From positions 1 through 20,910 of IMG/VR virus record IMGVR_UViG_2671181019_000012: a DNA stretch of 20,910 nucleotides. One strand, 5' to 3'. A program made the translations under genes and the position numbers. The notes beneath the pieces were generated by a model that was given only the letters and a program-made list of their open reading frames with translations, was not told where the DNA came from and did not search any database. Below are positions 1 to 20,910 of this stretch, piece after piece. The stretch is from a virus (taxonomy: Duplodnaviria; Heunggongvirae; Uroviricota; Caudoviricetes). Within the stretch, counting starts at the first letter, position 1. The number at the start of each line of letters is the position of its first letter.

Positions 1-28
1 AATCCCTACCCGAAATAATACTTATTAG

Positions 29-55
29 AAAAAAACCAGCCTTTGGGGAGGCTGG
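29..55 (-). terminator. tR'-like intrinsic terminator about 100 nt downstream of Q
   Basis: Stem CCAGCC (36-41) / GGCTGG (50-55), 8-nt loop, followed on minus strand by a 7-T run (plus-strand A-run 29-35). Confidence 0.55.
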
Positions 56-155
56 CTAAATCAGGAAACAAGCTGTTATATGATAATAACTACGTTGCGA
101 TTCCAACATTTAAAATGTTAGACTAATGAGAATCAGACAGCAACTTTTCCTTTAA

Positions 156-533
156 TTATTTTGAACAATCAGCATCCATCTCCAATCGGAGATCCAACAC
201 CATCAGCATACCCTCCACTACGCCCTCAGCTTTCTGGAGCATCCTGCCAACCCAACAATCAGATCGCCCATGCTTACGTGCAAGCGCCATAAAAGTCATG
301 CCGCCGACATAATAGTCCACCAATAAATCATGCAAATCGCTGTTGTTCTTTTTCAGACGGGCCATGCACCCGCAAATGATCATCGCGTCATCGTCACAAC
401 ATTGCGGGCGAGATTTTACTTTTGAAGGAATTAATCCCTTAAAACCGGCGGCAATGGACGACCAGGTCACATCTTCATGATTATTAGCCGCCCACGCTCC
501 CCAACGCTCAAGAACCATCTGAATATCACGCAT
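156..533 (-). CDS. Late-gene antitermination protein Q (small Q family, resembles DLP12 QuuD from memory)
   Basis: ORF 156..548; first ATG at 533 preceded by GGAG; translation [20 protein letters not shown]... with a CCDDD...CGC cysteine cluster; followed by terminator at 29-55. Confidence 0.7.
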
Positions 534-755
534 CAACTTACTCCACAAAAATCAGACCAGAACGCCAATTACAAGCAAAAATCAATAAAACAGTATTAGT
601 TGATTGTTATCTCTGACTTCATACTCCTGCTCCTGTCAGGGTTTTGGCGTAATTCCTCAGTATTCGGTAATCGGTCAAAACAGAACTGGGGAAACGATAT
701 AAGCGCAGGCGCATCCAGCGGTGGCGAAGAAGTTCTGCCATATTAAACTCAAACA

Positions 756-863
756 TCATTCATTCCCCATTTCGGTGATGGTCAGTTCCAGCCTCCCACC
801 TTTGGTAGCAAGTGTTGTTTGAGAGATATTCAGTGACTCTCGATATTTTCGTAGGTTGCTCAT
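756..863 (-). pseudogene. Truncated cro-like XRE-HTH remnant (35 codons)
   Basis: ATG at 863 with GGAGGG RBS; MSNLRKYRESLNISQTTLATKGG resembles the N-terminal half of 434-type Cro HTH, then ends after unrelated residues; divergent from cI. Confidence 0.4.
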
Positions 864-979
864 ATGCCCTCCATAGTAACCTCGAATAAAAAATACAATA
901 TGTACTTTCCAAATACAAGCAAAAATACACATTGTGCATGGATGGTTCCAGTACAGAGCGTAATAATAAGGACATGAAA
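864..979. promoter_or_regulatory. Divergent immunity promoter/operator region (pRM/pR-like) between cro remnant and cI
   Basis: Intergenic between divergent HTH genes; repeated AAATACA[AC] motifs at 891-898, 911-918, 923-930; same motif recurs at 3155-3162. Confidence 0.4.
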
Positions 980-1633
980 ATGAAATGGTATGAACTGGCT
1001 AGATCCAGAATGAAAGAGCTCGGCATAACTCAAGAGAAGTTAGCCGAAGAGCTAGGTATGACGCAGGGTGGGATTGGACACTGGTTGCGCGGATCTCGTC
1101 ATCCATCTCTTAGTGATATTGGTGTGGTGTTTAAATACCTTGGTATTGATAACATATCATTCAACCACGACGGGACATTTTCACCTGTTGGCGAATACTC
1201 ATCGGCCCCAGTTAAAAAACAATATGAGTACCCTGTATTTTCTCATGTTCAGGCTGGGATGTTCTCTCCAGAACTCAGAACCTTTACCAAAGGCGATGCG
1301 GAGAGATTGGTAAGCACAACCAAAAAAGCCAGTGACTCTGCATTCTGGCTTGAGGTTGAAGGTAACTCAATGACCGCACCAACAGGTTCCAAACCCAGTT
1401 TTCCTGACGGGATGTTAATTCTGGTTGACCCTGAGCAAGCTGTTGAGCCCGGCGATTTCTGCATAGCCAGACTTGGTGGTGATGAATTTACCTTCAAGAA
1501 ACTGATCAGGGATAGCGGTCAGGTGTTTCTACAGCCACTAAACCCACAATACCCAATGATCCCATGCAATGAGAGTTGTTCCGTTGTGGGGAAAGTTATC
1601 GCTAGTCAGTGGCCTGAAGAGACGTTTGGGTGA
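980..1633 (+). CDS. cI: CI-type prophage repressor (XRE HTH N-domain + LexA/S24 autocleavage C-domain)
   Basis: C-terminal ~130 aa match lambda CI as I recall it ([29 protein letters not shown]...GNSM...FKKL...PEETFG); N-terminal HTH differs from lambda. Start 980 (AAGGA 968-972) or 974. Confidence 0.9.
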
Positions 1634-1679
1634 CAAGAAGCACAGGTATTAACAATAACTTTCATGGTGATACGAATCA

Positions 1680-2222
1680 GTGGCTAAAAAAGGCGACTTT
1701 AAGCCTACCCAGAAAGAGGTTGACCAAGCTATTACTCGCTTGAAAAAAGTAACTTTTAGCGGAGTTACATGGACCGGAAGTGAGGGACGAACCCCAATCT
1801 GGTTTAAATTGGATCTCAAAGCTTTTGATGAAATTGGCAACCCAATCACAGGCATAAGATTTATGCTTCACTGGCGTCCTCCTATCGTTGAAGGGGTGGA
1901 TATAGTGAAGATTTCATTTGTGATGTTTCTTCATGACAGGCGCATTTACGCGCTTGATCCGTACCCTGCGGATAACAAGCCACACCGTAATAAATCTATA
2001 GTGAACCATCCAGATTTTGTTGAGGTGGCTCGAGGTCCTCACTATCACATGTACTTCGAATCAGCTGGGGAAGAAATTGCACTTAAGCTTGAAACGAACA
2101 TCAAGCCAGATGATTTTTTTGGCTACTGGAATTATTTTTGCGAGGCGCTTAATATCATATATGAAGGCAGCCCACCTTTACCTAATCAAGATAAATCAGG
2201 TCAGTTATCATGGGAAATGTAA
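1680..2222 (+). CDS. Hypothetical protein, first gene of rex-position cassette
   Basis: 180-codon ORF with GTG start, 46 nt after cI stop, same strand; overlaps next ORF by 13 nt; no motif I recognise. Confidence 0.55.
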   Translation: MAKKGDFKPTQKEVDQAITRLKKVTFSGVTWTGSEGRTPIWFKLDLKAFDEIGNPITGIRFMLHWRPPIVEGVDIVKISFVMFLHDRRIYALDPYPADNKPHRNKSIVNHPDFVEVARGPHYHMYFESAGEEIALKLETNIKPDDFFGYWNYFCEALNIIYEGSPPLPNQDKSGQLSWEM

Positions 2223-2986
2223 CGTGTTCAACAGTCATATCTAAGCTCGGGTTTGAATGCCACCCAATGAGCGACACGTTGCTGCGCGTTATTAGTCCAT
2301 TCACATACTACGATGATTGTGAGCAGATAAGTGTATTCGTTCAAGAGATGAGTGGTCAGTATAGGGTTACAGACTACTGCGATACATTGATGAATATTGA
2401 ATCACGCGGCATCCACCTGACTAAAAAGAAAATTGATCTGATCAGGTCATCACTCGCTTCGCAAGGAATTTCATTAAATGACTCTGGAGAGATATCTGCG
2501 TGGGCAGATGAGTCGTCCGTTGGACAGGTAACTGCAAATGTTATTCGTGGTGGGATTCTTGCATCCGCCCAAACTGCTGATTGGTATGCTGAGGTCAAAG
2601 ACGATAAGTTCGAAAAATGTGTAATCAGTTACTTAAAATCAGCAGGGCTTGGGAAGCGACTAGTCTTAAAGGAAAAAGTGAAAGGTATTAGTGGGCATAA
2701 CATTACTGTTCCGTTAACGCTAAGGAATGAGTCTCGACTAATACCACCAAAACGCGGGTTTACGGTAAGCCTTGCCAGCAGTAAGGGATGGAATACTGCC
2801 CACTCAACAGTTGGGAAGATTATTGACTTAAGTCAGGTCGTTCCTGACATAAACAATAGATTTGTAATAGTTGACAGCGATGGGTTAACACCTGAGCTAC
2901 AGCAACTATCATTACTATTTAATGATACCGCACGAGTGTTGCCATTCCATACCAGAGACTCTTGGATTGAGTCTCTGGTAGCCTAG
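2210..2986 (+). CDS. Hypothetical protein, second gene of rex-position cassette
   Basis: 258-codon ORF overlapping the previous stop; followed by intrinsic terminator; no motif I recognise. Confidence 0.6.
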   Translation: MGNVTCSTVISKLGFECHPMSDTLLRVISPFTYYDDCEQISVFVQEMSGQYRVTDYCDTLMNIESRGIHLTKKKIDLIRSSLASQGISLNDSGEISAWADESSVGQVTANVIRGGILASAQTADWYAEVKDDKFEKCVISYLKSAGLGKRLVLKEKVKGISGHNITVPLTLRNESRLIPPKRGFTVSLASSKGWNTAHSTVGKIIDLSQVVPDINNRFVIVDSDGLTPELQQLSLLFNDTARVLPFHTRDSWIESLVA

Positions 2987-2991
2987 AAAAA

Positions 2992-3017
2992 CCCGGCCTC
3001 AGCGCCGGGTTTTCTTT
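2992..3017 (+). terminator. Intrinsic terminator closing the cI-cassette operon
   Basis: Stem CCCGGC (2992-2997) / GCCGGG (3004-3009), then TTTTCTTT. Confidence 0.6.
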
Positions 3018-3145
3018 GCCTCACCCCCCACCTAAAGACACATAACCAAATGTATTTATTGAAAAATAAATAGATACAACTCACTAAACCACGCAATTCT
3101 GATCTCTCCTTACATCGCCGAGGCGATACACCCACGCTAAAAAAC

Positions 3146-3231
3146 AACACTATTAAATACAAAGTGTTATAAAAAATCACCCCATTTTAGAACAAATCGT
3201 ATTTATCCAATAGAGTACATATCGTACTATT
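3146..3231. promoter_or_regulatory. Candidate OL/pL operator-promoter region
   Basis: Inverted repeats AACACT (3146-3151) n11 AGTGTT (3163-3168) containing AAATACAA, and GTAC-atatc-GTAC (3215-3227); lies between cassette terminator and N. Confidence 0.3.
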
Positions 3232-3276
3232 TAACCGTCAGCAGGACGCTGGAAGCCAAACGGAACAGACTGGCAG

Positions 3277-3304
3277 GCTCTTTAAACAACGTCGAACTCT
3301 CGAC
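3277..3304 (+). promoter_or_regulatory. Candidate nutL (boxA-like GCTCTTTAAACAA plus boxB-like hairpin)
   Basis: GCTCTTTAAACAA (3277-3289) resembles boxA consensus; adjacent hairpin GTCGA-actc-TCGAC (3291-3304); about 120 nt upstream of N. Confidence 0.35.
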
Positions 3305-3420
3305 TACGTGGCTGAAAAGCCAGATCACCCAACCACATGAGCTGTGGGATGCAATGCCGAAGCAACCGTCTCAGGAGGAGCTTCGAGATTGCATCACCAA
3401 AGTTTATTCGGGAGGAATCT

Positions 3421-3693
3421 ATGTCCAGAAAAACAGAATTTAAAGGCACCTCAGCTTCTCGTCGTAGAGCTCGTCGCGCAAACCTGCAAAGTCAGGAGGC
3501 GATTAGCTCCGACAAGCTACACAGACCAACCCCCTCTCGAGTGGTCTTGCAATGCAAGCGCAAACCAGCAATGAGAGCAGAAGTAATAACACTGACAACG
3601 TTGACCAGAAAATATGAAGGCTCAACTTGTCTTCCAAATGTAGCTCTTTACGCGGCAGGCTACAGGAAATCAAAACAACTGACAGCAAGGTGA
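3421..3693 (+). CDS. N: N-type transcription antiterminator
   Basis: ATG 3421 after GGGAGG; arginine-rich motif SASRRRARRANLQ; C-terminus LPNVALYAAGYRKSKQLTAR closely resembles P22 gp24/N C-terminus as I recall it. Confidence 0.7.
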   Translation: MSRKTEFKGTSASRRRARRANLQSQEAISSDKLHRPTPSRVVLQCKRKPAMRAEVITLTTLTRKYEGSTCLPNVALYAAGYRKSKQLTAR

Positions 3694-3821
3694 CTTGTGT
3701 TGGTCGCCAGAAAATAAAATTAGGCAGCAAACCACTTATTTGAGGTGATATATGGAAGAAGAATTTGAAGAGTTCGAAGAGCATCCTCAGGATGTGATGG
3801 AACAATACCAGGACTATCCGT

Positions 3822-4022
3822 ATGACTACGACTATTGATAAAAATCAATGGTGTGGACAATTCAAGCGATGCAATGGATGCAAGCTGCAATCGGAATGCA
3901 TGGTTAAGCCTGAAGAAATGTTTCCTGTAATGGAAGATGGGAAATATGTCGATAAATGGGCAATACGAACGACGGCAATGATTGCCAGAGAACTTGGTAA
4001 ACAGAACAACAAGGCTGCCTGA
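3822..4022 (+). CDS. Hypothetical small Cys-rich early protein
   Basis: 66-codon ORF with CxxxxxxCxxC cluster. Confidence 0.4.
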   Translation: MTTTIDKNQWCGQFKRCNGCKLQSECMVKPEEMFPVMEDGKYVDKWAIRTTAMIARELGKQNNKAA

Positions 4023-4081
4023 TGGTGGCCTTTATTTTTTGGCCGTAAATAATTTCATGCTTATTACAATCAAGGGGATAT

Positions 4082-4531
4082 ATGGAAGAACAAGCAAACA
4101 AGATTCTCGTAGAACTACTGCAAAAAGCCAGCAATGGAATAGACACGGCTGTTTCATTCAGCCAGGCGCAGATTCCTGATGTTGTTCATCAGTTGCTGCT
4201 ATGGAATATGGTTGACAGTCTGATTAAAACATTAATAGCCATTCTAACAATCCCACTGGTTTTCTGGTTTATGAAGAAGCAGTGCCGAAGAGTTGAGACA
4301 GGTAAAATCGGTGATGAAGGATATTCATGGGAGAAGGGAAATCCCAAATACAGGCCGACAATGGTTTGGGATAGCAAAGGTGATATTAATCTTCTTATCA
4401 TGCCATTAGTTGGAGTTTTGGCTCTGTGGGGGATTTTTATTATTAGTGCAGTAACCAATATGACATGGTTAAAAATTTTGCTGGCTCCAAAGCTTTACCT
4501 TATCGAATATGCAGCATCATTGGTTAAGTAA
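4082..4531 (+). CDS. Small inner-membrane protein, possibly SieB-like superinfection exclusion (position-based guess)
   Basis: ATG 4082 after AAGGGG; two clear hydrophobic helices; sits in early-left region; followed by terminator. Confidence 0.5.
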   Translation: MEEQANKILVELLQKASNGIDTAVSFSQAQIPDVVHQLLLWNMVDSLIKTLIAILTIPLVFWFMKKQCRRVETGKIGDEGYSWEKGNPKYRPTMVWDSKGDINLLIMPLVGVLALWGIFIISAVTNMTWLKILLAPKLYLIEYAASLVK

Positions 4532-4536
4532 TTTCA

Positions 4537-4562
4537 GGCCGCATAGTCGGCCTTTATTTTTG
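4537..4562 (+). terminator. Intrinsic terminator
   Basis: GGCCG-catagt-CGGCC followed by TTTATTTTT. Confidence 0.6.
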
Positions 4563-4680
4563 GCACTAACAACAGAATAAACACTGCACTGTGTATTCAT
4601 TCCAACGAGTGAATACACGGAGCAATGTCGCTCGTAACTAAACAGGAGCCGACTTGTTCTGATTATTGGAAATCTTCTTT

Positions 4681-4708
4681 GCCCTCCAATGTGAGGGCGA
4701 TTTTTTAT
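4681..4708 (+). terminator. Intrinsic terminator
   Basis: GCCCTC-caatgt-GAGGGC followed by GATTTTTTAT. Confidence 0.55.
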
Positions 4709-4726
4709 CTATGAGGATATGAATAG

Positions 4727-5074
4727 ATGTCAAACATCAAAAAATACATCATTGATTACGACTGGAAAGCATCAATAGAAATTGAAATCGACCATGACGT
4801 AATGAAAGAGGAAAAACTTCACCAGATTAATAATTTCTGGTCAGACTCTGAATACCGACTAAATAAACACGGCTCTTTATTAAATGCTGTATTAATCATG
4901 CTGGCGCAACATGCTCTGCTTATAGCAATTTCGAAAGACTTAAATGCATATGGTGTTGTGTGTGAGTTCGACTGGAATGATGGAAATGGTCAGGAAGGAT
5001 GGCCTCCAATGGATGGTAGCGAAGGAATAAGAATTACCGATATCGATACATCAGGAATATCCGAAATCCCCTGA
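4727..5074 (+). CDS. Hypothetical phage protein
   Basis: 115-codon ORF, ATG with GAGGA RBS. Confidence 0.5.
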   Translation: MSNIKKYIIDYDWKASIEIEIDHDVMKEEKLHQINNFWSDSEYRLNKHGSLLNAVLIMLAQHALLIAISKDLNAYGVVCEFDWNDGNGQEGWPPMDGSEGIRITDIDTSGISEIP

Positions 5075-5119
5075 AAGCACAGCGGCTGGCTGAGGAGATA
5101 AATAATAAACGGGGGCTGT

Positions 5120-5677
5120 ATGACTGATTTCACCGGAAGCAATACTCCTGCCGAACATCGCGACAGCTGGCGCACACCACCAGAGATTTTTACTGCGCTT
5201 AATGCAGAGTTCGTTTTTCAACTTGATGCTGCCGCCAGCGAAAAAAACCGACTATGTCGGCTTTTTATCTCACAGGAGCAGAACACATTAACCACTTCAT
5301 GGCCTGAAGCAATGGGATATGCCTCTGGTTATGTCTGGTTGAATCCACCATACAGCAATATTTCCCCTTTTGTGAAAAAGGCAGCCACTGAAAACAAATT
5401 CAGTAGTGTGGGATGTGTAATGTTATTGCCTGCTGACACATCTGTCGGATGGTTTCATGAAGCGATACAAACCGCCAGTGAGGTCAGATTCATCACGGCA
5501 GGACGACTGGCATTTATTAACCCACTCACTGAGAAACCCGTCAGTGGAAATAATAAAGGCTCGATGCTCATTATCTGGCACCCATACCCCCGTACACACT
5601 GCCACTTTACGACCGTTGATCGTGGAGAGTTGATGGCGTTCGGCTCAAGGATTCTTGCCCGTCGGGAGGCTGCATGA
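5120..5677 (+). CDS. Phage-type DNA N6-adenine methyltransferase (orphan)
   Basis: NPPY catalytic motif (WLNPPYSN); size and context typical of phage Dam-family methyltransferases. Confidence 0.85.
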   Translation: MTDFTGSNTPAEHRDSWRTPPEIFTALNAEFVFQLDAAASEKNRLCRLFISQEQNTLTTSWPEAMGYASGYVWLNPPYSNISPFVKKAATENKFSSVGCVMLLPADTSVGWFHEAIQTASEVRFITAGRLAFINPLTEKPVSGNNKGSMLIIWHPYPRTHCHFTTVDRGELMAFGSRILARREAA

Positions 5678-5757
5678 CAACCACGGAATGCATTTTTCTG
5701 GCAGCGGGCTTCATATTCTGTGTGCTTATGCTTGCCGACATGGGACTTGTTCAATGA
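5674..5757 (+). CDS. 27-aa hydrophobic peptide, translationally coupled on both sides
   Basis: GGGAGG RBS; ATG overlaps methyltransferase stop (ATGA 5674-5677); its stop overlaps next ATG (ATGA 5754-5757); MTTTECIFLAAGFIFCVLMLADMGLVQ. Confidence 0.35.
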   Translation: MTTTECIFLAAGFIFCVLMLADMGLVQ

Positions 5758-5969
5758 CACCTCAGCACGAAAACGCCCTTCGCAGCATTGCCCGTCAGGC
5801 TAATTCTGAAATCAAAAAAGCCAGACAGCAGTTTCCGGATAAAAACGTCGATGACATTTGCCGTAGCGTACTGAAGAAGCACCGCGAAACGGTAACGCTG
5901 ATGGGATTCACACCGACTCATTTAAGCCTGGCGATCGGCATGTTAAACGGCGTCTTTAAGGAACGGTGA
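5754..5969 (+). CDS. Hypothetical protein (71 aa)
   Basis: In-frame ATG coupled to upstream peptide; the 5655 start in the ORF track is probably an artefactual 5' extension. Confidence 0.5.
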   Translation: MTPQHENALRSIARQANSEIKKARQQFPDKNVDDICRSVLKKHRETVTLMGFTPTHLSLAIGMLNGVFKER

Positions 5970-6067
5970 ACATGAAAAGCAAAATCATCAGGGAGCTACA
6001 GGCTCCTTTTTTATTGTTCGCATTCATCCTCAAGCGTATTAACCAACAATTCAGGGATTAATGGAAG

Positions 6068-6286
6068 ATGGCAGACATCATTGATTCAGCATCAGAAATC
6101 GAAGAATTACAGCGCAATACAGCAATAAAAATGCGTCGTCAGAACTACCAGACTGTATCCGCAACTCATTGTTGTGAGTGTGGCGATCCGATAGATGAGC
6201 GAAGACGCCTGGCTGTTCAGGGTTGTCGGACTTGTGCAAGTTGCCAGGAGGAGATCGAACTTAAGAACAAACAATGGGGACTGTGA
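6068..6286 (+). CDS. TraR/DksA-family C4 zinc-finger protein
   Basis: CCECGDPI...CRTCASC (CxxC-n17-CxxC) in a 72-aa protein. Confidence 0.75.
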   Translation: MADIIDSASEIEELQRNTAIKMRRQNYQTVSATHCCECGDPIDERRRLAVQGCRTCASCQEEIELKNKQWGL

Positions 6287-6333
6287 TGGCCTCAAAGCAG
6301 CAAATTTCAACATCGTCCAACTGAGGTGTAAAA

Positions 6334-6612
6334 ATGTTCAGAATCATTTTTCCTAACACCTGGTACGTCGACCACCACGGCACTCCCTGCAAAATCCTGC
6401 GTTCTACCCACAACAAAGTTCACTACATCCGAAAAGGCAGAACATGTATCGCCAGCATGTTCCGCTTTAATCATGACTTTGAACCTGTGAATAAAGCTGA
6501 TGCAGATCGGATAGCAGAAGAGATCGAAACGGCAGAACACATTAAGAAGTTACGTGACATGCGTTCAAAAAGCAGAGGTAACCATGGAATCATACAGCCT
6601 CACACTCGATGA
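6334..6612 (+). CDS. Hypothetical phage protein
   Basis: 92-codon ORF with GAGGTG RBS. Confidence 0.5.
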   Translation: MFRIIFPNTWYVDHHGTPCKILRSTHNKVHYIRKGRTCIASMFRFNHDFEPVNKADADRIAEEIETAEHIKKLRDMRSKSRGNHGIIQPHTR

Positions 6613-6934
6613 GGCCTGTCAGTTTCTCAAGATATCCAGACCTACCGCTACCAACTGGATACGAACAGGCCGCCTACAGGCAACACGCAAAGACCCCACT
6701 AAACTAAAATCTCCTTACCTCACAACACGACAAGCCTGCATTGCGGCGCTTCAGTCTCCGCTGCATACTGTCCAGGTGAGCGCGGGTGATGGCATAACAG
6801 AGGAAAGAAAATGTCACTCTTCCGCAGAGGTGAAATATGGTACGCCAGTTTCACATTGCCGAACGGTAAAAGATTTAAACAGTCTCTTGGAACAAAGGAC
6901 AAAAGGCAGGCGACAGAACTCCATGACAAGCTAA
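6584..6934 (+). CDS. xis: Excisionase (AlpA/Xis-type HTH)
   Basis: [31 protein letters not shown] directly upstream of and overlapping int; ATG 6584 after GAGG. True 3' end uncertain. Confidence 0.55.
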
Positions 6935-7974
6935 AGGCTGAAGCATGGCGGGTCAGCAAACTTGGTGAAATACCTGATATAACGTTCGAGGAAGCGTGTG
7001 TCAGGTGGCTTGAAGAGAAAGCACATAAAAAATCACTGGACGATGACAAAAGCCGGATCGGATTCTGGCTTCAACATTTCGCAGGAATGCAACTAAGAGA
7101 CATTACTGAATCAAAAATTTATTCAGCAATGCAGAAAATGACGAACCGGCGTAATGAGGAAAACTGGAAACTCAGGGCAGAAGCATGCAGAAAAAAAGGG
7201 AAACCTGTTCCAGAATACAAGCCAAAACCAGCGTCTGTTGCAACGAAGGCTACGCATCTTTCATTTATAAAAGCCCTACTAAGAGCCGCAGAGCGTGAAT
7301 GGAAAATGCTGGATAAGGCACCAATTATTAAAGTGCCTCAACCAAAGAATAAACGGATCCGCTGGCTGGAGCCCCATGAAGCACAAAGGCTGATTGATGA
7401 ATGTCCGGAGCCATTAAAGTCTGTTGTTGAATTTGCACTGGCAACAGGCTTAAGACGCTCGAACATCATCAACCTTGAATGGCAACAAATAGATATGCAG
7501 CGCCGGGTGGCATGGATAAACCCGGAAGAGAGTAAATCAAACCGCGCAATCGGCGTTGCGCTGAATGATACTGCATGTCGCGTATTGAAAAAACAAATCG
7601 GGAATCATCACCGTTGGGTATTTGTGTACAAGGAAAGCTGTACCAAACCAGACGGAACGAAAGCGCCAACAGTAAGGAAGATGCGGTATGACGCAAACAC
7701 AGCCTGGAAAGCGGCGCTGAGACGGGCTGGTATTGATGATTTCAGATTTCACGACTTGAGACACACCTGGGCAAGTTGGCTGGTTCAAGCCGGAGTCCCG
7801 TTGTCAGTGTTACAGGAAATGGGAGGCTGGGAGTCTATCGAAATGGTTCGTCGATATGCTCACCTTGCACCTAATCACCTTACCGAACACGCACGGCAAA
7901 TAGACTCGATCCTGAACCCATCGGTCCCAAATTTGTCCCAGTCAAAAAATAAGGAAGGTACTAATGATGTGTAA
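6811..7974 (+). CDS. int: Tyrosine integrase (lambda family; resembles DLP12 IntD from memory)
   Basis: 387 aa; catalytic-region signatures ([16 protein letters not shown]); adjacent to tRNA att core. Confidence 0.9.
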
Positions 7975-7988
7975 CTTATTGATTTAAA

Positions 7989-8037
7989 TGGTGCCGATAA
8001 TAGGAGTCGAACCTACGACCTTCGCATTACGAATGCG
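7989..8037 (-). tRNA. Partial tRNA-Thr(CGU) 3' fragment (thrW-type att core), not a complete gene
   Basis: Minus strand reads CGCATTCGTAATGCGAAGGTCGTAGGTTCGACTCCTATTATCGGCACCA (anticodon loop, T-arm, acceptor 3' strand, CCA); 5' half absent. Confidence 0.75.
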
Positions 8038-8125
8038 TAAATTGATCTTGTAAAATCAATACCTATCGAATTTAAATGGATTTTTTGCCACAATATTGCC
8101 ACAGTTCGTTAGGAATCAGACAGAA

Positions 8126-15158: not shown

Positions 15159-15191
15159 GCCCGACTGGTAAGATCGGGCCTTTTTATTTTT
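15159..15191 (+). terminator. Intrinsic terminator (possibly bidirectional)
   Basis: GCCCGA-ctggtaaga-TCGGGC followed by CTTTTTATTTTT. Confidence 0.6.
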
Positions 15192-15613
15192 CCACTCTGG
15201 CCTGAATGGAACATCCTACATTAGACGTTAAGATCTTACATCTAATTATCCGAAAATACTAATGGATGCGTAGTTGCATTTGACCTGACCGCCCATTTGC
15301 GGGTTACTCTACCATCGCCAATAAAGTCCGGCTACTCGAATTCGGAAGTATTAGGCTATAGGTCATAAACCTGAATAACTGCTATGTGCTGAAGCGGATA
15401 AAGCTGACATCATTATGCACCAATCAACTCGGTGTAAGTCAGCTAGTTGGTGATGGAGTGACTTGTCAATAGTTGTAGCCCCTACCAGTGCATCGGAGAT
15501 TCTTGAGTGTAACCTTAGTTGCTTTAATCAGAAGTAAAGGAAACGTACTATGAAAATCAGTACTCTTAATCAAGAGATCCCCCGTTCTCTCACGGAAAAG
15601 GGGGATTGAATTT

Positions 15614-16876
15614 TCAAATTTTCTTTTTAGCGATAAAAATACAGTAAAAATATAAGGTTTTGATAATGTGATTAATGCTGTGCACCTCGCGAAATAATAG
15701 TAATAGCTTCCTCATAAAAGACATGAAACTAAGTTCGTTGTATTTAGTGCGTTCCATTCCTTCCTTAGCGAAATAGTAGGTTATCATCTGAATTGACTCT
15801 TTATATTCATATTTATAATGTGCAATGCCATTTCGCAGCTTGTTGTCTAAAGCATTGAGATCAACTATATAAAAGCTATCATCCAATCCGCTTATTTTCG
15901 TGCCTAAATCAACGTTTGCATATTCGTTGAGACTAGAAAAACCTTTAATTAAATCGCCTTTTTTATTTAGTCTTACTGAATCGTCAAAAATATTATGATC
16001 TCCGCGTTTTAATAAGTTATTCAATCCGGCCACAATTATTAATTGCCGAGAGAATACTTCAGATAAGTCTTTGTAAAAATTGTTACAGTCATCAAATTCG
16101 GCAGTTGAAACTCGAGCAGGAATCATTGATAAATCTACGTTTTTATCATAATCATAGTAAAGCGCTGGGCGTGAAGGGAGTTCAAAGTCAAGCATTTTGG
16201 GATATAGGCTTAAACAATCGAAATGCAAACTTTTCAGAAACCCACTTCCAATAATATCATCTAAAAATTTATTTAGCTGTTTTGGATGATTTTTCTGAAT
16301 ATAATGAAGAAATTGTGGCATTTTTTCACTAATTTCAGCATTATGTGCATGTATTGTAAAGGGAAATGACATTGCAGAGGTTGCTGTATAAAGTGCGGAA
16401 AGGATATCTTGTATTTTTAGCGAACGAGGTTTTTTCAGAGTAGGTAATTCTTTCATTAGGTTACTGAAAGTATTGTAATTTCCTTGTTTGTATTGAGTAA
16501 TGAGTCGCTGGAGCTTATCGCGATGTTTATAAATATAATTCATTCCATTTAGATGTGCGTTCAGCATTAAGTATTTTTCATGACCTATTGCACTTGTTAT
16601 TTTTAAGAATGCTGTTTTTCCTATTTCGTATTTTCCAAAGCCTACGGGAAAATCTAAATGCAAATCGATGAATGGATTTGTTGTGCCAAAGTCATTGCTT
16701 TCTACAGTTTCCGCACCGTTAAATACAGGCTCTCCCTCCCCAAGAGTAAACGATATATTATTCTCACAATTTGGACATGCAAATTGGAACGGTTGTATGT
16801 CTCGATTAGACATACCTATTCTTGTATCAATGACCGTGTCACATACAAGGCATTTAAATTGCTGTAAAAAATTCAT
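15614..16876 (-). CDS. Zn-ribbon plus HEPN-motif protein (candidate Abi-like RNase)
   Basis: N-terminal CLVCD...CPNC zinc ribbon; C-terminal LRNGIAHYKY matches the HEPN Rx4H motif; AT-rich, monocistronic. Confidence 0.65.
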   Translation of the reverse strand: MNFLQQFKCLVCDTVIDTRIGMSNRDIQPFQFACPNCENNISFTLGEGEPVFNGAETVESNDFGTTNPFIDLHLDFPVGFGKYEIGKTAFLKITSAIGHEKYLMLNAHLNGMNYIYKHRDKLQRLITQYKQGNYNTFSNLMKELPTLKKPRSLKIQDILSALYTATSAMSFPFTIHAHNAEISEKMPQFLHYIQKNHPKQLNKFLDDIIGSGFLKSLHFDCLSLYPKMLDFELPSRPALYYDYDKNVDLSMIPARVSTAEFDDCNNFYKDLSEVFSRQLIIVAGLNNLLKRGDHNIFDDSVRLNKKGDLIKGFSSLNEYANVDLGTKISGLDDSFYIVDLNALDNKLRNGIAHYKYEYKESIQMITYYFAKEGMERTKYNELSFMSFMRKLLLLFREVHSINHIIKTLYFYCIFIAKKKI

Positions 16877-17123
16877 AAATATTTTATTAATCCTATAAAT
16901 TATAAGTTAAGTATTAGTCTTTTATCTACAAACCAAAGCCACTTTACTACTTTACCTAACTGCACTTTAAACAATCATAAGTTCTTTTTTTTTAAAAAGG
17001 TAGTCCAAAGATACCAATTTATTCAATATCAACGAGAATTCGAGACTCCTATGTGAGTAAAAAACTATGAGCTTCATGCCATGCTTTCAATAAATGTCTT
17101 CAGTTACCCATAAATTTACTGGA

Positions 17124-17651
17124 TTAACAATTTGTAGTCTTTCCGACCAAATTACCGCGCGCAGTGTGACCCCATACTTTAGATGTCACCTTATCTCTTT
17201 CCACTAGTTGTTTACGGTGCATCAAATCGGCAAGCAGTATTGAAACAAAGAACATGAATTTTGTTTTGGGAGTATTAGGAACATCTTTGGGTCCAAGCCA
17301 AGGTAGCTGCTCCAGTTGATTTTGTATTTTGGGTGTTGCGAAGCTAACACCATTCCAACTATGCCCAAAAGCATTTCTAATGCTACGCAGTGTGTTTAGT
17401 TCTTTGTATTCGTGTTCCATTATCAGTCCTAACGCATATGCTAAGCCTGTTCTAGCAGCAAAAGATGATAAAGGCGCTGTTGCACCATTCAGTAGACCTT
17501 TAGCTACTTTGTCATTTAACAGGTGAGCCTGGATGATCTCGGATAACCACTCATCGAAAATGGATGCTGCTATTAGAACAGAGCCACGATCTGATTCTTT
17601 ATTTAGTTCGGACAAAAATTGACCGAGTTCAATTTGGGTTTTATCACTCAC
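17124..17651 (-). CDS. HEPN-motif protein (175 aa)
   Basis: RSIRNAFGHSW (Rx4H); GTG start 17651 with AAGGAG RBS. Confidence 0.6.
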   Translation of the reverse strand: MSDKTQIELGQFLSELNKESDRGSVLIAASIFDEWLSEIIQAHLLNDKVAKGLLNGATAPLSSFAARTGLAYALGLIMEHEYKELNTLRSIRNAFGHSWNGVSFATPKIQNQLEQLPWLGPKDVPNTPKTKFMFFVSILLADLMHRKQLVERDKVTSKVWGHTARGNLVGKTTNC

Positions 17652-18165: not shown

Positions 18166-18843
18166 TTACATGTAGATATTCATTAAACTGTCAAATAGTC
18201 TTTTGGTTAACTCTTTTTCCGCTCGTGCTTCGATTTGAGCCATACCATTTCGGAAGAGTTTTAATTTACCGCTAAATTCTTGGTCATGAATAGTACATGT
18301 CAATCGATCAAGTCTCATTTTTTTGTGAATAAGCTCATCTTTGAAATATTTTTTAAGATCGCTGGTACTATTAATTTGCATCTTGGCAAGAGCAAATTCA
18401 GCAACTTGAATTTGAGATACATCTAGTTGCACTATATTAAGTGTCAACTCTGTGTTTAAAGAACTGAACCATATGAACGGGTCAATCTCAATCTCTTCTA
18501 AGCTGGTACCAAGACCAAGGTTTTTTACCAGTGCCTGAGCAAATGGTTTAAGTGTTCTCGGTGGATTATCAATAAGTAAAACTGGGGTGTATTGTTCGTC
18601 AAAACTGAAAGATGTTACTCTATATTCAATGCGTTCAACAGCGGTACTGTTGCCGTATAGATTACTTATTCTATCTTCGCTAATTATCTTTTCGATGAAG
18701 CGAGCGTGAAAATGAGATGTTCGTGATTTATCAAATATAAACCCTTTCCCTTTCTCTTCAGTAAAAGGATCACGCATGAGTTTTTCAACTGTTTCACTAG
18801 TAGTGAAACGATTGTTGAGTTTAATCCATTTAAATTTTTTCAT
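18166..18843 (-). CDS. Hypothetical protein, gene C of three-gene operon
   Basis: 225 codons; start overlaps gene B end by 14 nt; AT-rich. Confidence 0.6.
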   Translation of the reverse strand: MKKFKWIKLNNRFTTSETVEKLMRDPFTEEKGKGFIFDKSRTSHFHARFIEKIISEDRISNLYGNSTAVERIEYRVTSFSFDEQYTPVLLIDNPPRTLKPFAQALVKNLGLGTSLEEIEIDPFIWFSSLNTELTLNIVQLDVSQIQVAEFALAKMQINSTSDLKKYFKDELIHKKMRLDRLTCTIHDQEFSGKLKLFRNGMAQIEARAEKELTKRLFDSLMNIYM

Positions 18844-19909
18844 GCTCTTCCACCTTTTTACCCGTCACGATATTATAGGCGTCTGCTGCTGACTGTTCAA
18901 TTAGTAGGCTGATTTTCTTCTTTTCAACTTCATTTGCTGCACGAATAGTAACATTGTATCCACTACCTTTTTGGTTATTGATTCCTTTAATTTGATAGGA
19001 AAAATCAGAGCAATTTTCTGAATCCTTAAAGAAAGCTTCAACCAAAATCCTGTCTCCTATTCCGTTTTTAGGTTTAGCAGACCAAGCAATTCTTCCAATA
19101 TAGTATCCTTTGTTATGTAGTTGGGTGAAAATAGCAGAACTATTAACAGAATCACCTTTTAGAACCGCTTTTTTTACGAATCCTGTCTCGATTTCTTCTT
19201 CTTCCTCGTCATCACCTTTGCTTGTTGAACGGTTAAGCTCTACATTAGTAACGTCGTCAATTTCATATCCACTCAAGCCGCCCATAACCTCTTGAAAAAA
19301 CTGACTTCTTAGCGCTGGTGTAGGAATCGCTTCTAAAGAAATTTCAAACTTTTCAACATCAACGGATTTAATCTTTGACAACTCTTTTTGTAATAGTGTT
19401 ATTACATCTTTAGCCTTTTGGTTCTGAGGCATACGAATATCAACATTATCGTTATTTACAGTAAGATCAATCTTGATGTTTCGGTTGTCTATCTGACGCA
19501 ATGCTGTTCTGGACAAGTCTACTTCTTGGTAGTTTACCTCGATTGCTAAAGACCCATCTTTTTTCGCAGTGATTTTTACTGTTTCACCAGAGCCAGTGGC
19601 TAATTTTCTTTTAACTAACTCTGCTGCTGTTTTTAATTCCGTCTGAGAGGATGATGCTTGAAGCTTGACGCTAGTTATACTCTCTCTTTTATCATAAGTT
19701 TGTACAAGTTCCTTAATAGAATCTAGATCACTATATCCCTGAGGTAGTTTGCAAACCTCTTCAATTAATTCCTCCTTTGTTAAGTCTTGAGCAACAATAA
19801 TACCTTTCCGTAATAATATCTCGCGTAATCTTGCGATGGTAATTCGTTTATGATGAAGTGCATCATATATATTTTTGTCAGTTGCGAAATAAATATTCAT
19901 GTTATTCAT
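18830..19909 (-). CDS. Hypothetical protein, gene B of three-gene operon
   Basis: 359 codons; start overlaps gene A stop by 1 nt (TAATG); acidic DDEEEEE linker mid-protein. Confidence 0.6.
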   Translation of the reverse strand: MNNMNIYFATDKNIYDALHHKRITIARLREILLRKGIIVAQDLTKEELIEEVCKLPQGYSDLDSIKELVQTYDKRESITSVKLQASSSQTELKTAAELVKRKLATGSGETVKITAKKDGSLAIEVNYQEVDLSRTALRQIDNRNIKIDLTVNNDNVDIRMPQNQKAKDVITLLQKELSKIKSVDVEKFEISLEAIPTPALRSQFFQEVMGGLSGYEIDDVTNVELNRSTSKGDDEEEEEIETGFVKKAVLKGDSVNSSAIFTQLHNKGYYIGRIAWSAKPKNGIGDRILVEAFFKDSENCSDFSYQIKGINNQKGSGYNVTIRAANEVEKKKISLLIEQSAADAYNIVTGKKVEEHEKI

Positions 19910-20910
19910 TAACGTTGCTCCATGCCTATAGCTTCAAGACTATATTGAATTACCATTGCAGCTGTTTTTTCGAATGCAACTTTTGAAAACAAACGTTCAC
20001 TTTCGCCTGATAGCCAATGGGCACTATATTTTTGCTTTGCTCTTTCAAAGTGATGAATGGAGTCTTCATGCGGATTTATATGACAATGTCTAATTTTTAT
20101 TCTTTTTGCATCAGTCAGTATTTGATAATTAGAAAGCATGTCAAGGAAATAGATGAACTCATCTTCACTATTCCCTGGTTGATTATAATAAATTACGTAA
20201 CCACTATCTTCTTTTTCACCCATCCAATCGAATTCTTCATGCTTTATTATTATGAATGGTGATGTTAAGACCTCAACAGTAGCTGCAGTCTTATTGTTGA
20301 TAGGATGTTTTATCCTAGTTAGTGCTAAGTCTGGGTAATAGAAATAGTACAAATCTGGTTGAGGTAAAGCCCCGGTACCAATAAGCATTTTAATATCTGA
20401 TGCTATATTTATCATATCGGATATTTTGAATGGATCTAAAAGGTGTAATTTTATGTTTGGGGGGCATTTTATTATTTCAGGGTCGACTTTCTTCATCACG
20501 GATGAGTAAAAATCCTTGTCATAAAGGTTGTCATGATTATAGAGAAATAATAAACCTCGAACTTTGTAACCTAATGACTCATCCCGCACATATCGTTTAC
20601 ACCACTGTTGGCTAATGTTGGCGCATTCTGTAGCGAGAGCTAAAGAAGAAAGTGCACCTTCTACCATCCCTTTGCCGATACTACTTTGAGCATAGCTTTT
20701 GAGGTCTGTGTTCAAGTACACAATCTCTTCTTCATAAGGATCGGTATAGTAAAACACCACATCGCTAGGATGTGTTTTTTTGTCATGAGCCTCTAGGTCG
20801 CAATCCCAGTTCATATCTTGACTAGTAGCTCGTTGCCATTTGAAAATTTTAAAAATATCTTGGGTTATCTTATTTGCAACATGCTGTATTGAAGAGGTCT
20901 CTCCGCCCAT
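19909..20910 (-). CDS. Hypothetical protein, gene A of three-gene operon (possibly 5'-truncated by window edge)
   Basis: 333 codons; ATG is the final 3 bases of the window, so start may be real or the ORF may continue upstream. Confidence 0.55.
   Translation of the reverse strand: MGGETSSIQHVANKITQDIFKIFKWQRATSQDMNWDCDLEAHDKKTHPSDVVFYYTDPYEEEIVYLNTDLKSYAQSSIGKGMVEGALSSLALATECANISQQWCKRYVRDESLGYKVRGLLFLYNHDNLYDKDFYSSVMKKVDPEIIKCPPNIKLHLLDPFKISDMINIASDIKMLIGTGALPQPDLYYFYYPDLALTRIKHPINNKTAATVEVLTSPFIIIKHEEFDWMGEKEDSGYVIYYNQPGNSEDEFIYFLDMLSNYQILTDAKRIKIRHCHINPHEDSIHHFERAKQKYSAHWLSGESERLFSKVAFEKTAAMVIQYSLEAIGMEQR

Follow-up and report, generated by a model that had tools for sequence, protein, structure and literature searches.

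A stand-alone zinc-ribbon/HEPN protein carried by mobile elements as a candidate single-gene abortive-infection effector

We asked what a stand-alone, AT-rich gene in a viral genome fragment (IMG/VR record IMGVR_UViG_2671181019_000012, Caudoviricetes; positions 1 to 20,910, referred to here as the window) could do for its carrier. An initial annotation, made without database searches, had proposed that this gene, for which we use the name zinc-ribbon/HEPN gene, encodes a single-gene abortive-infection effector with an N-terminal zinc ribbon and a C-terminal HEPN ribonuclease (RNase) motif. Our analysis supports this proposal as a candidate, because the two features on which it had been staked, a HEPN fold and conservation of the arginine and histidine of the motif among homologues, were both found. 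We consider it probable (roughly 60%) that this gene travels as cargo of mobile elements and that its product acts autonomously as both immune sensor and effector, of the HEPN RNase class.

15614..16876, minus strand: zinc-ribbon/HEPN gene, a complete open reading frame (ORF) with an ATG start, encoding 420 aa plus stop

The 420-aa ORF, its two CxxC pairs (CLVC, residues 9-12, 16841-16852; CPNC, residues 34-37, 16766-16777) and the RNGIAH sequence (residues 348-353, 15818-15835) were all present as the initial annotation had described them. The gene is also AT-rich, with a GC content of 33.2% compared to 40.2% for the whole window and 44.5% for positions 1-9000. How much do such motifs mean on their own? 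In composition-matched shuffles of the protein, at least two CxxC motifs occurred in just 0.4% of the cases. Rx4-6H occurred in 74% of them and Rx4H in 36%, so that the RNase motif alone is uninformative and the case for it rests on conservation and fold.

We therefore looked at conservation. An exhaustive profile search assigned 455 representative clusters (~50% identity) to the family at E<=1e-3. The full-length relatives number hundreds, all annotated as 'hypothetical' and none with a Pfam domain, and the family spans several phyla, from Proteobacteria to Firmicutes. Three alignments were used: A1 (n=23) and A2 (n=90) with homologues (48-90% identity), and A3 with 48 diverse representatives (18-39% identity). 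R348, N349, I351 and H353 were invariant in A1 and A2, and the cysteines were invariant or nearly so. In A3, the sole invariant columns were C9, C12, C34, C37, R348 and H353, while R19, D270, E273, N287 and N349 were conserved in at least 90% of the sequences. R348 and H353 were thus invariant in all three alignments. Even a plasmid-borne relative from Enterococcus with ~25% identity kept both CxxC pairs, its motif reading RNAIQH. The zinc ribbon was among the best-conserved regions of the protein, with a lower entropy than the protein overall (0.76 versus 1.22 in A2; 2.38 versus 2.73 in A3); the variable parts were a loop (residues 46-68), two helical segments (89-131 and 176-229) and an insert (292-344).

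Some entries of the family are ~400 aa long and begin at the internal Met22, losing the first CxxC pair (e.g. locus L108, 5064-6266; clusters P0006 and P0105). The conservation of C9 and C12 indicates that the Met22 starts are mis-called and speaks for the longer form as the true protein. A C-terminal SEC-C metal-binding motif was seen in six of the 48 diverse members. One member with this extra motif is a distant 454-aa protein from the Enterococcus faecalis plasmid pEFS108_1 (locus L107, 4977-6341).

Next, we asked whether the predicted structure contains a HEPN fold. An AlphaFold2 model built on the 90-sequence alignment was confident (mean predicted local distance difference test score 89.7, predicted template modelling score 0.90) and divided the protein as follows.

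16742..16876, minus strand: Cys4 zinc ribbon, residues 1-45; two beta-hairpins, each with one CxxC knuckle, the four cysteines invariant in the 48 representatives
16613..16741, minus strand: residues 46-88; the loop 46-68 is variable, the beta segment after it, with NPF(V/I)DLHLDFP, is conserved
16247..16612, minus strand: middle region, residues 89-210; all-helical, with the most variable helical segments (89-131 and 176-229, the latter running on beyond it)
15617..16246, minus strand: HEPN-fold region, residues 211-420
15818..15835, minus strand: Rx4H catalytic-type motif R348-N-G-I-A-H353; R and H invariant, N349 kept in at least 90% of the distant relatives

The strands of the zinc ribbon span residues 2-9, 15-21, 28-33 and 40-45, with the CxxC pairs at the turns; further strands follow up to residue 81, and helices span residues 89-302. 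For the middle region (89-210), Pfam and PDB sequence searches detected no relatives, and this region is a candidate regulatory or sensor module. In the HEPN-fold region, a long helix (258-291) bears the near-invariant D270, E273 and N287 and precedes the insert (292-344); for D270 and E273 we refer to their position along the chain only. After the insert, a short helix (345-353) ends in RNGIAH and is followed by a beta-hairpin (356-383) and a long C-terminal helix (384-415).

A HEPN fold was found by structure prediction and comparison, with the four-helix up-down bundle in place. The first seven ranks of the structure comparison were all HEPN proteins (Csm6, 8.6; HepT, 8.5 and 7.9; YutE, 7.5; HI0074, 7.3; Csm6, 7.2; TTHA0636, 7.0), with a root-mean-square deviation of ~3 A across 111-127 residues, and Anantharaman et al. 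(PMC3710099) list ~20 of the 24 top structural matches as members of the HEPN superfamily. Foldseek against PDB gave no significant match for the model. In the published definition, the HEPN motif Rx4-6H closes helix 3 and opens onto the loop that connects it to helix 4 (PMC3710099). The topology of the model is consistent with this definition, the insert preceding helix 3: RNGIAH forms the last residues of helix 345-353, before the hairpin and the last helix, so that R348 and H353 are placed, in the model, where the HEPN active site lies. By predicted fold and by motif, the protein is a member of the HEPN superfamily.

Does this fold imply an RNase? Many HEPN families are non-catalytic or regulatory (PMC3710099), and the protein could instead be a non-catalytic or non-suicidal HEPN protein, either a nucleic-acid-binding regulator (compare MtlR and the mannitol genes) or an RNA-processing factor of its element. 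The conserved zinc ribbon would be expected of a nucleic-acid-binding module, and the protein did not match curated HEPN RNase profiles. However, from Proteobacteria to Firmicutes R348 and H353 are invariant and N349 is kept in at least 90% of the members, a pattern characteristic of catalytic HEPN families, and a housekeeping or element-core role would not account for a distribution that is patchy, mobile and tied to variable accessory slots. We regard such a non-catalytic or non-suicidal function as quite improbable.

We then asked whether the protein has already been described. It is identical to a protein cluster (P0001) present in Klebsiella and E. coli; in E. coli PM22 the locus is 99.9% identical and the product is RefSeq WP_001395316.1, labelled 'hypothetical protein'. 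Neither Pfam, NCBIfam nor PADLOC v2.0.0 contained a match to the protein, so that the Pfam comparison with HEPN and Abi_2 families, which the initial annotation had proposed as a check, gave no match for the protein itself. PDB searches by sequence (single sequence and profile) returned noise alone. Among the 48 relatives no significant match to a curated HEPN-clan profile was found, the matches being sub-threshold only (pEK499_p136 in three, best E 0.0047; Abi_2 in one, E 0.004; Csm6_6H in one), and zinc-ribbon Pfam matches were weak and recurrent. An assignment to Abi_2 (AbiD/AbiF-like, PF07751) was rejected on these grounds. In PHROGs v4 the protein corresponds to phrog_13366 (full-length match, E=6e-229), which the Klebsiella, Proteus and Enterococcus homologues match too; this is the same family, but it is listed as 'unknown function', i.e. 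a catalogue entry and not a characterisation. Literature searches for WP_001395316 and phrog_13366 found no mention of either, and the family was absent from deposited phage genomes in a tblastn search. Identity with a named lactococcal Abi protein was rejected, as the homologues on Lactococcus plasmids, like those on Enterococcus plasmids, are annotated solely as SEC-C-domain or hypothetical proteins. Thus, no described family or named defence system, among those checked, includes the protein.

If the protein acts alone, it should be found without a constant partner. The contexts of homologues varied widely and included moron slots of lambdoid prophages.

Providencia homologue (73% identity): integrase-proximal prophage moron
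Yersinia homologue (77% identity): adjoins an AAA-ATPase/S8-protease pair
Cellvibrio homologue: immediately follows a Gabija pair
Klebsiella pneumoniae homologue: sole gene called between P2 gpA and ogr, beside the portal gene
Enterobacter homologue: within a P4-like satellite
Proteus homologue: moron on the opposite strand, flanked by the lysis genes and Q
Shewanella homologue: single-gene islet

The interval between gpA and the portal gene is a hotspot where P2 itself carries old and tin and where the defence system 3HP has also been found (PMC9122126). A genome scan with alignment A1 added 79 more loci, spread over three classes of Proteobacteria and other phyla. No recurrent partner was found among the 592 neighbouring ORFs at these loci, no family occurring in more than four of them, and there was no conserved small ORF within 450 bp. 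The gene is autonomous, and the claim that it stands alone was borne out, since none of the neighbours, large or small, is shared by more than four of the 79 loci. The flanking ORFs include Lamassu LmuB (4), Gabija GajB (3), pAgo (2) and type I restriction-modification (2), as well as phage integrases (4) and resolvases (3); as this tally was made without a matched control, the association with defence and mobile genes is qualitative.

The claim that the gene is monocistronic was plausible. A 247-bp gap upstream and two elements matching a consensus would fit it:

16899..16928, minus strand: promoter-like site TAGATA-18-TATAAT, a candidate own promoter, 23 nt upstream of the ATG, by consensus match alone
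15578..15599, minus strand: hairpin, a candidate terminator, 15 nt downstream of the stop codon, by consensus match alone

However, promoter-like sites and hairpins were no more numerous in this region than in shuffled sequence.

These contexts also bear on whether the gene could be a selfish toxin, an addiction module or a factor in competition between elements, which would favour its carrier without giving real protection against phages. The gene is always part of a mobile element or next to one (prophages, a satellite, plasmids, an integrative island), and HEPN toxins such as HepT are classical toxins of toxin-antitoxin (TA) systems. However, neither an antitoxin gene nor a small ORF or repeat RNA was consistently found with it, the window lacked tandem repeats, and no RNA family was credibly matched near the gene. 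Both a type II or type III TA toxin and, more broadly, a type III or small-antitoxin arrangement were therefore rejected. Moreover, its positions, in the P2 gpA-portal hotspot and beside Gabija or Lamassu, are typical of defence cargo. A free-standing toxin that was constitutively active could not be maintained, so that conditional activation is required, as has been shown for the solo proteins RAZR and HepS. Taken together, we consider a selfish toxin unlikely. A weak Rfam match to Thr_leader at 15150-15207 (minus strand; 24.5 bits versus a gathering score of 55, E 0.18) is most likely due to chance.

The window does contain neighbours that could be taken for partners. Upstream of the zinc-ribbon/HEPN gene, on the same strand and 247 bp away, lies a second HEPN gene, as the initial annotation had stated, and beyond it a complete 3HP defence system of three genes (PADLOC E 3e-80 to 5e-176).

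17124-17651, minus strand: MtlR-like HEPN gene; Pfam MtlR (PF05068), 27.8 bits (cut-off 25.2), with an RNAFGH motif; phrog_22031
18166-20910, minus strand: 3HP defence system, three genes complete
18166-18843, minus strand: Hp3, by PADLOC model
18830-19909, minus strand: Hp2, by PADLOC model
19909-20910, minus strand: Hp1, annotated as a PD-(D/E)XK nuclease; Pfam PDDEXK_GAPS4 match in other genomes

The start codon of Hp1 falls on the last base of the window. The PADLOC models Hp1-Hp2-Hp3 correspond to what we take to be the system named Rst_3HP; membership of the zinc-ribbon/HEPN protein in this system was rejected, as the three models match the neighbours instead. The MtlR family belongs to the HEPN superfamily (PMC3710099). 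The MtlR-like protein resembles component 5B of Aernus, and its gene could be a solo gene in its own right, with a role in defence or regulation.

Could the zinc-ribbon/HEPN protein nevertheless be half of a two-gene system with the MtlR-like protein, as a hetero-HEPN pair or its regulator, or a fourth or fifth component of 3HP? The two genes share a strand with only 247 bp between them and no terminator predicted there, HEPN domains work as dimers, and an MtlR-like protein forms part of the validated Aernus locus. Furthermore, 11 E. coli genomes and six Klebsiella contexts have the complete block Hp1-Hp2-Hp3-MtlR-zinc-ribbon/HEPN, which in several Klebsiella species adjoins tRNA-Thr/proA. However, this linkage was confined to a clade of near-identical copies: it was gone at 73-77% identity and below, and neither MtlR nor 3HP recurred in the 79 loci. 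The genes also separate in both directions. An 84%-identical MtlR-like gene occurs alone at the edge of a Pantoea prophage; in one E. coli lineage a 1-bp deletion frameshifts the MtlR-like gene just before RNAFGH while the zinc-ribbon/HEPN protein is intact (419/420 identical); and in another strain Tn10/IS10 lies between the two genes, 37 bp upstream of the ATG of an intact zinc-ribbon/HEPN gene. In addition, the partner of the MtlR-like protein in Aernus, 5A, is a DUF4365/AbiGii protein of another family. On comparative grounds, we therefore rejected both the MtlR-like gene and 3HP as partners and hold a joint system to be highly improbable.

A different role was suggested by plasmids. The family occurs on 43 of them, most mobilisable or conjugative, and a distant homologue, the 454-aa protein of the Enterococcus faecalis Inc18 conjugative plasmid pEFS108_1, lies ~4 kb from an AcrIIA9-family anti-CRISPR gene and a PcfJ-domain gene. 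Does the protein then help mobile elements to establish themselves, e.g. as a counter-defence RNase with host defence transcripts or guide RNAs as its targets? The wide spread of the family on such plasmids would be in line with this, but the Enterococcus plasmid is a single, distant case, the homologues mostly sit in classic defence slots and islands, and the closest characterised proteins of such architecture are defence effectors. A counter-defence or establishment factor is accordingly very unlikely.

How would an autonomous single-protein effector work? By analogy with characterised proteins, its function is most likely that of a self-inhibited, phage-triggered HEPN RNase that causes abortive infection. 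Two protomers would pair their RNxxxH motifs to form one composite, metal-independent RNase site, as judged from HEPN proteins in general (PMC3710099), RAZR (PMC13017515) and HepS (PMC13043305). The protein would be made constitutively and, because it has no antitoxin, would be kept inactive by itself; its RNase would be switched on once the non-catalytic part is bound or re-arranged by a product that the infecting phage makes. With tRNA, rRNA or mRNA cleaved, translation would stop, and the infected cell would arrest or die before phage release. Because the zinc ribbon is conserved and not variable, we speculate that its role lies in assembly or RNA binding, and that the trigger is more likely recognised by the loop 46-68 and the helical segments 89-131 and 176-229. 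More tentatively, and with the odds in our view against it, the protein could be the founding example of a broad single-protein immune family absent from databases, in which the conserved zinc ribbon and a helical module not seen before gate a HEPN RNase differently from RAZR; for example, such a protein may sense a conserved nucleic-acid or host-derived cue and not a variable phage protein surface.

Elsewhere in the window, a gene pair at 1680-2986 (plus strand), just after a CI-like repressor, encodes a DUF6978-like protein of 180 aa and a DUF1828 protein of 258 aa; its weak PADLOC matches to PDC-M24A/B (E 4e-4 and 7e-7) make it a possible prophage-borne defence candidate. A decayed remnant of conjugation or mobilisation genes extends over 9209-14958:

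10616-12019: TrbL/VirB6, conjugation remnant; trbL is frameshifted in one strain
12198-12992: TrbJ-like, conjugation remnant
13074-13439: NikA/TraJ-like, conjugation remnant

The same region holds orphan antitoxin-like genes, of the VbhA family and, at 14701-14958, of the HigA family, and a very AT-rich gene (~31% GC, 9209-10099) for a 296-aa membrane protein.

Finally, we compared the zinc-ribbon/HEPN protein with known systems. Solo HEPN abortive-infection proteins are well documented (RAZR, HepS, HEC-08, Tha), so that the conceptual gain is incremental. The gene is a credible candidate for an anti-phage suicide switch encoded by one gene, a type that is already known. If confirmed, it would add to the catalogue of phage defences a single-gene family of ~455 clusters at 50% identity in several phyla, and as the protein has no partner, its trigger could be mapped by escape mutants in a straightforward manner.

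The HEPN domains of HepT and Csm6 (PDB 7ae2, 8xdj and 6tug) share 9-13% sequence identity with the protein. An MNT antitoxin neutralises HepT, and control of Csm6 runs through its CARF domain and cyclic oligoadenylate; the zinc-ribbon/HEPN protein has no such partner or domain. Aernus is a recently validated P4 locus in which 5A combines a DUF4365 PD-(D/E)XK domain with AbiGii and 5B is MtlR-like (10.64898/2026.02.27.708500). Identity with Aernus, to which the label 'mannitol repressor' could lead, was rejected: the protein contains neither DUF4365 nor AbiGii, and only its neighbour resembles 5B. HEC-08 (10.1101/2024.01.29.577857) is a validated single-protein defence that likewise combines HEPN and zinc-finger-like modules and requires the histidine of its Rx4-6H motif; however, its domain order is reversed, with an N-terminal DUF3644 HEPN domain and C-terminal zinc fingers, and DUF3644 did not match our protein. 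HepS, a solo HEPN abortive-infection protein of prophage Gifsy-1 triggered by the tail-tip protein J (PMC13043305), is similar as a prophage accessory gene that encodes a single HEPN protein with Rx4H (R100-H105) and is self-inhibited until a phage structural protein binds. In contrast to our protein, HepS is small and HEPN-only, with no zinc ribbon or extra helical domain, and a sequence relationship between the two was not detected.

The closest in logic is RAZR (ring-activated zinc-finger RNase; PD-T7-4), a single gene that combines a zinc ribbon with a divergent HEPN domain and is switched on by portal or Erf-like rings (PMC13017515). Both proteins begin with an N-terminal Cys4 zinc ribbon. 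However, RAZR is a two-domain protein of ~25 kDa with a DUF4145 HEPN domain and an Rx7H motif (R146/H154; PMC13017515), while the protein described here has 420 aa, Rx4H, an additional helical region of ~120-170 residues and a beta-hairpin after the motif. Neither the DUF4145 (PF13643) nor the PD-T7-4 profile matched it or the 48 relatives, even at E<=1. Identity with RAZR, which was compared by profile models and published features, was rejected by profiles, size and conservation pattern. If confirmed, our protein would be a second, architecturally distinct zinc-ribbon and HEPN effector to set beside RAZR, and the contrast would be informative: in RAZR variability peaks in the zinc finger, which determines specificity, while in our family the zinc ribbon ranks among the best-conserved parts and the new helical module is variable.
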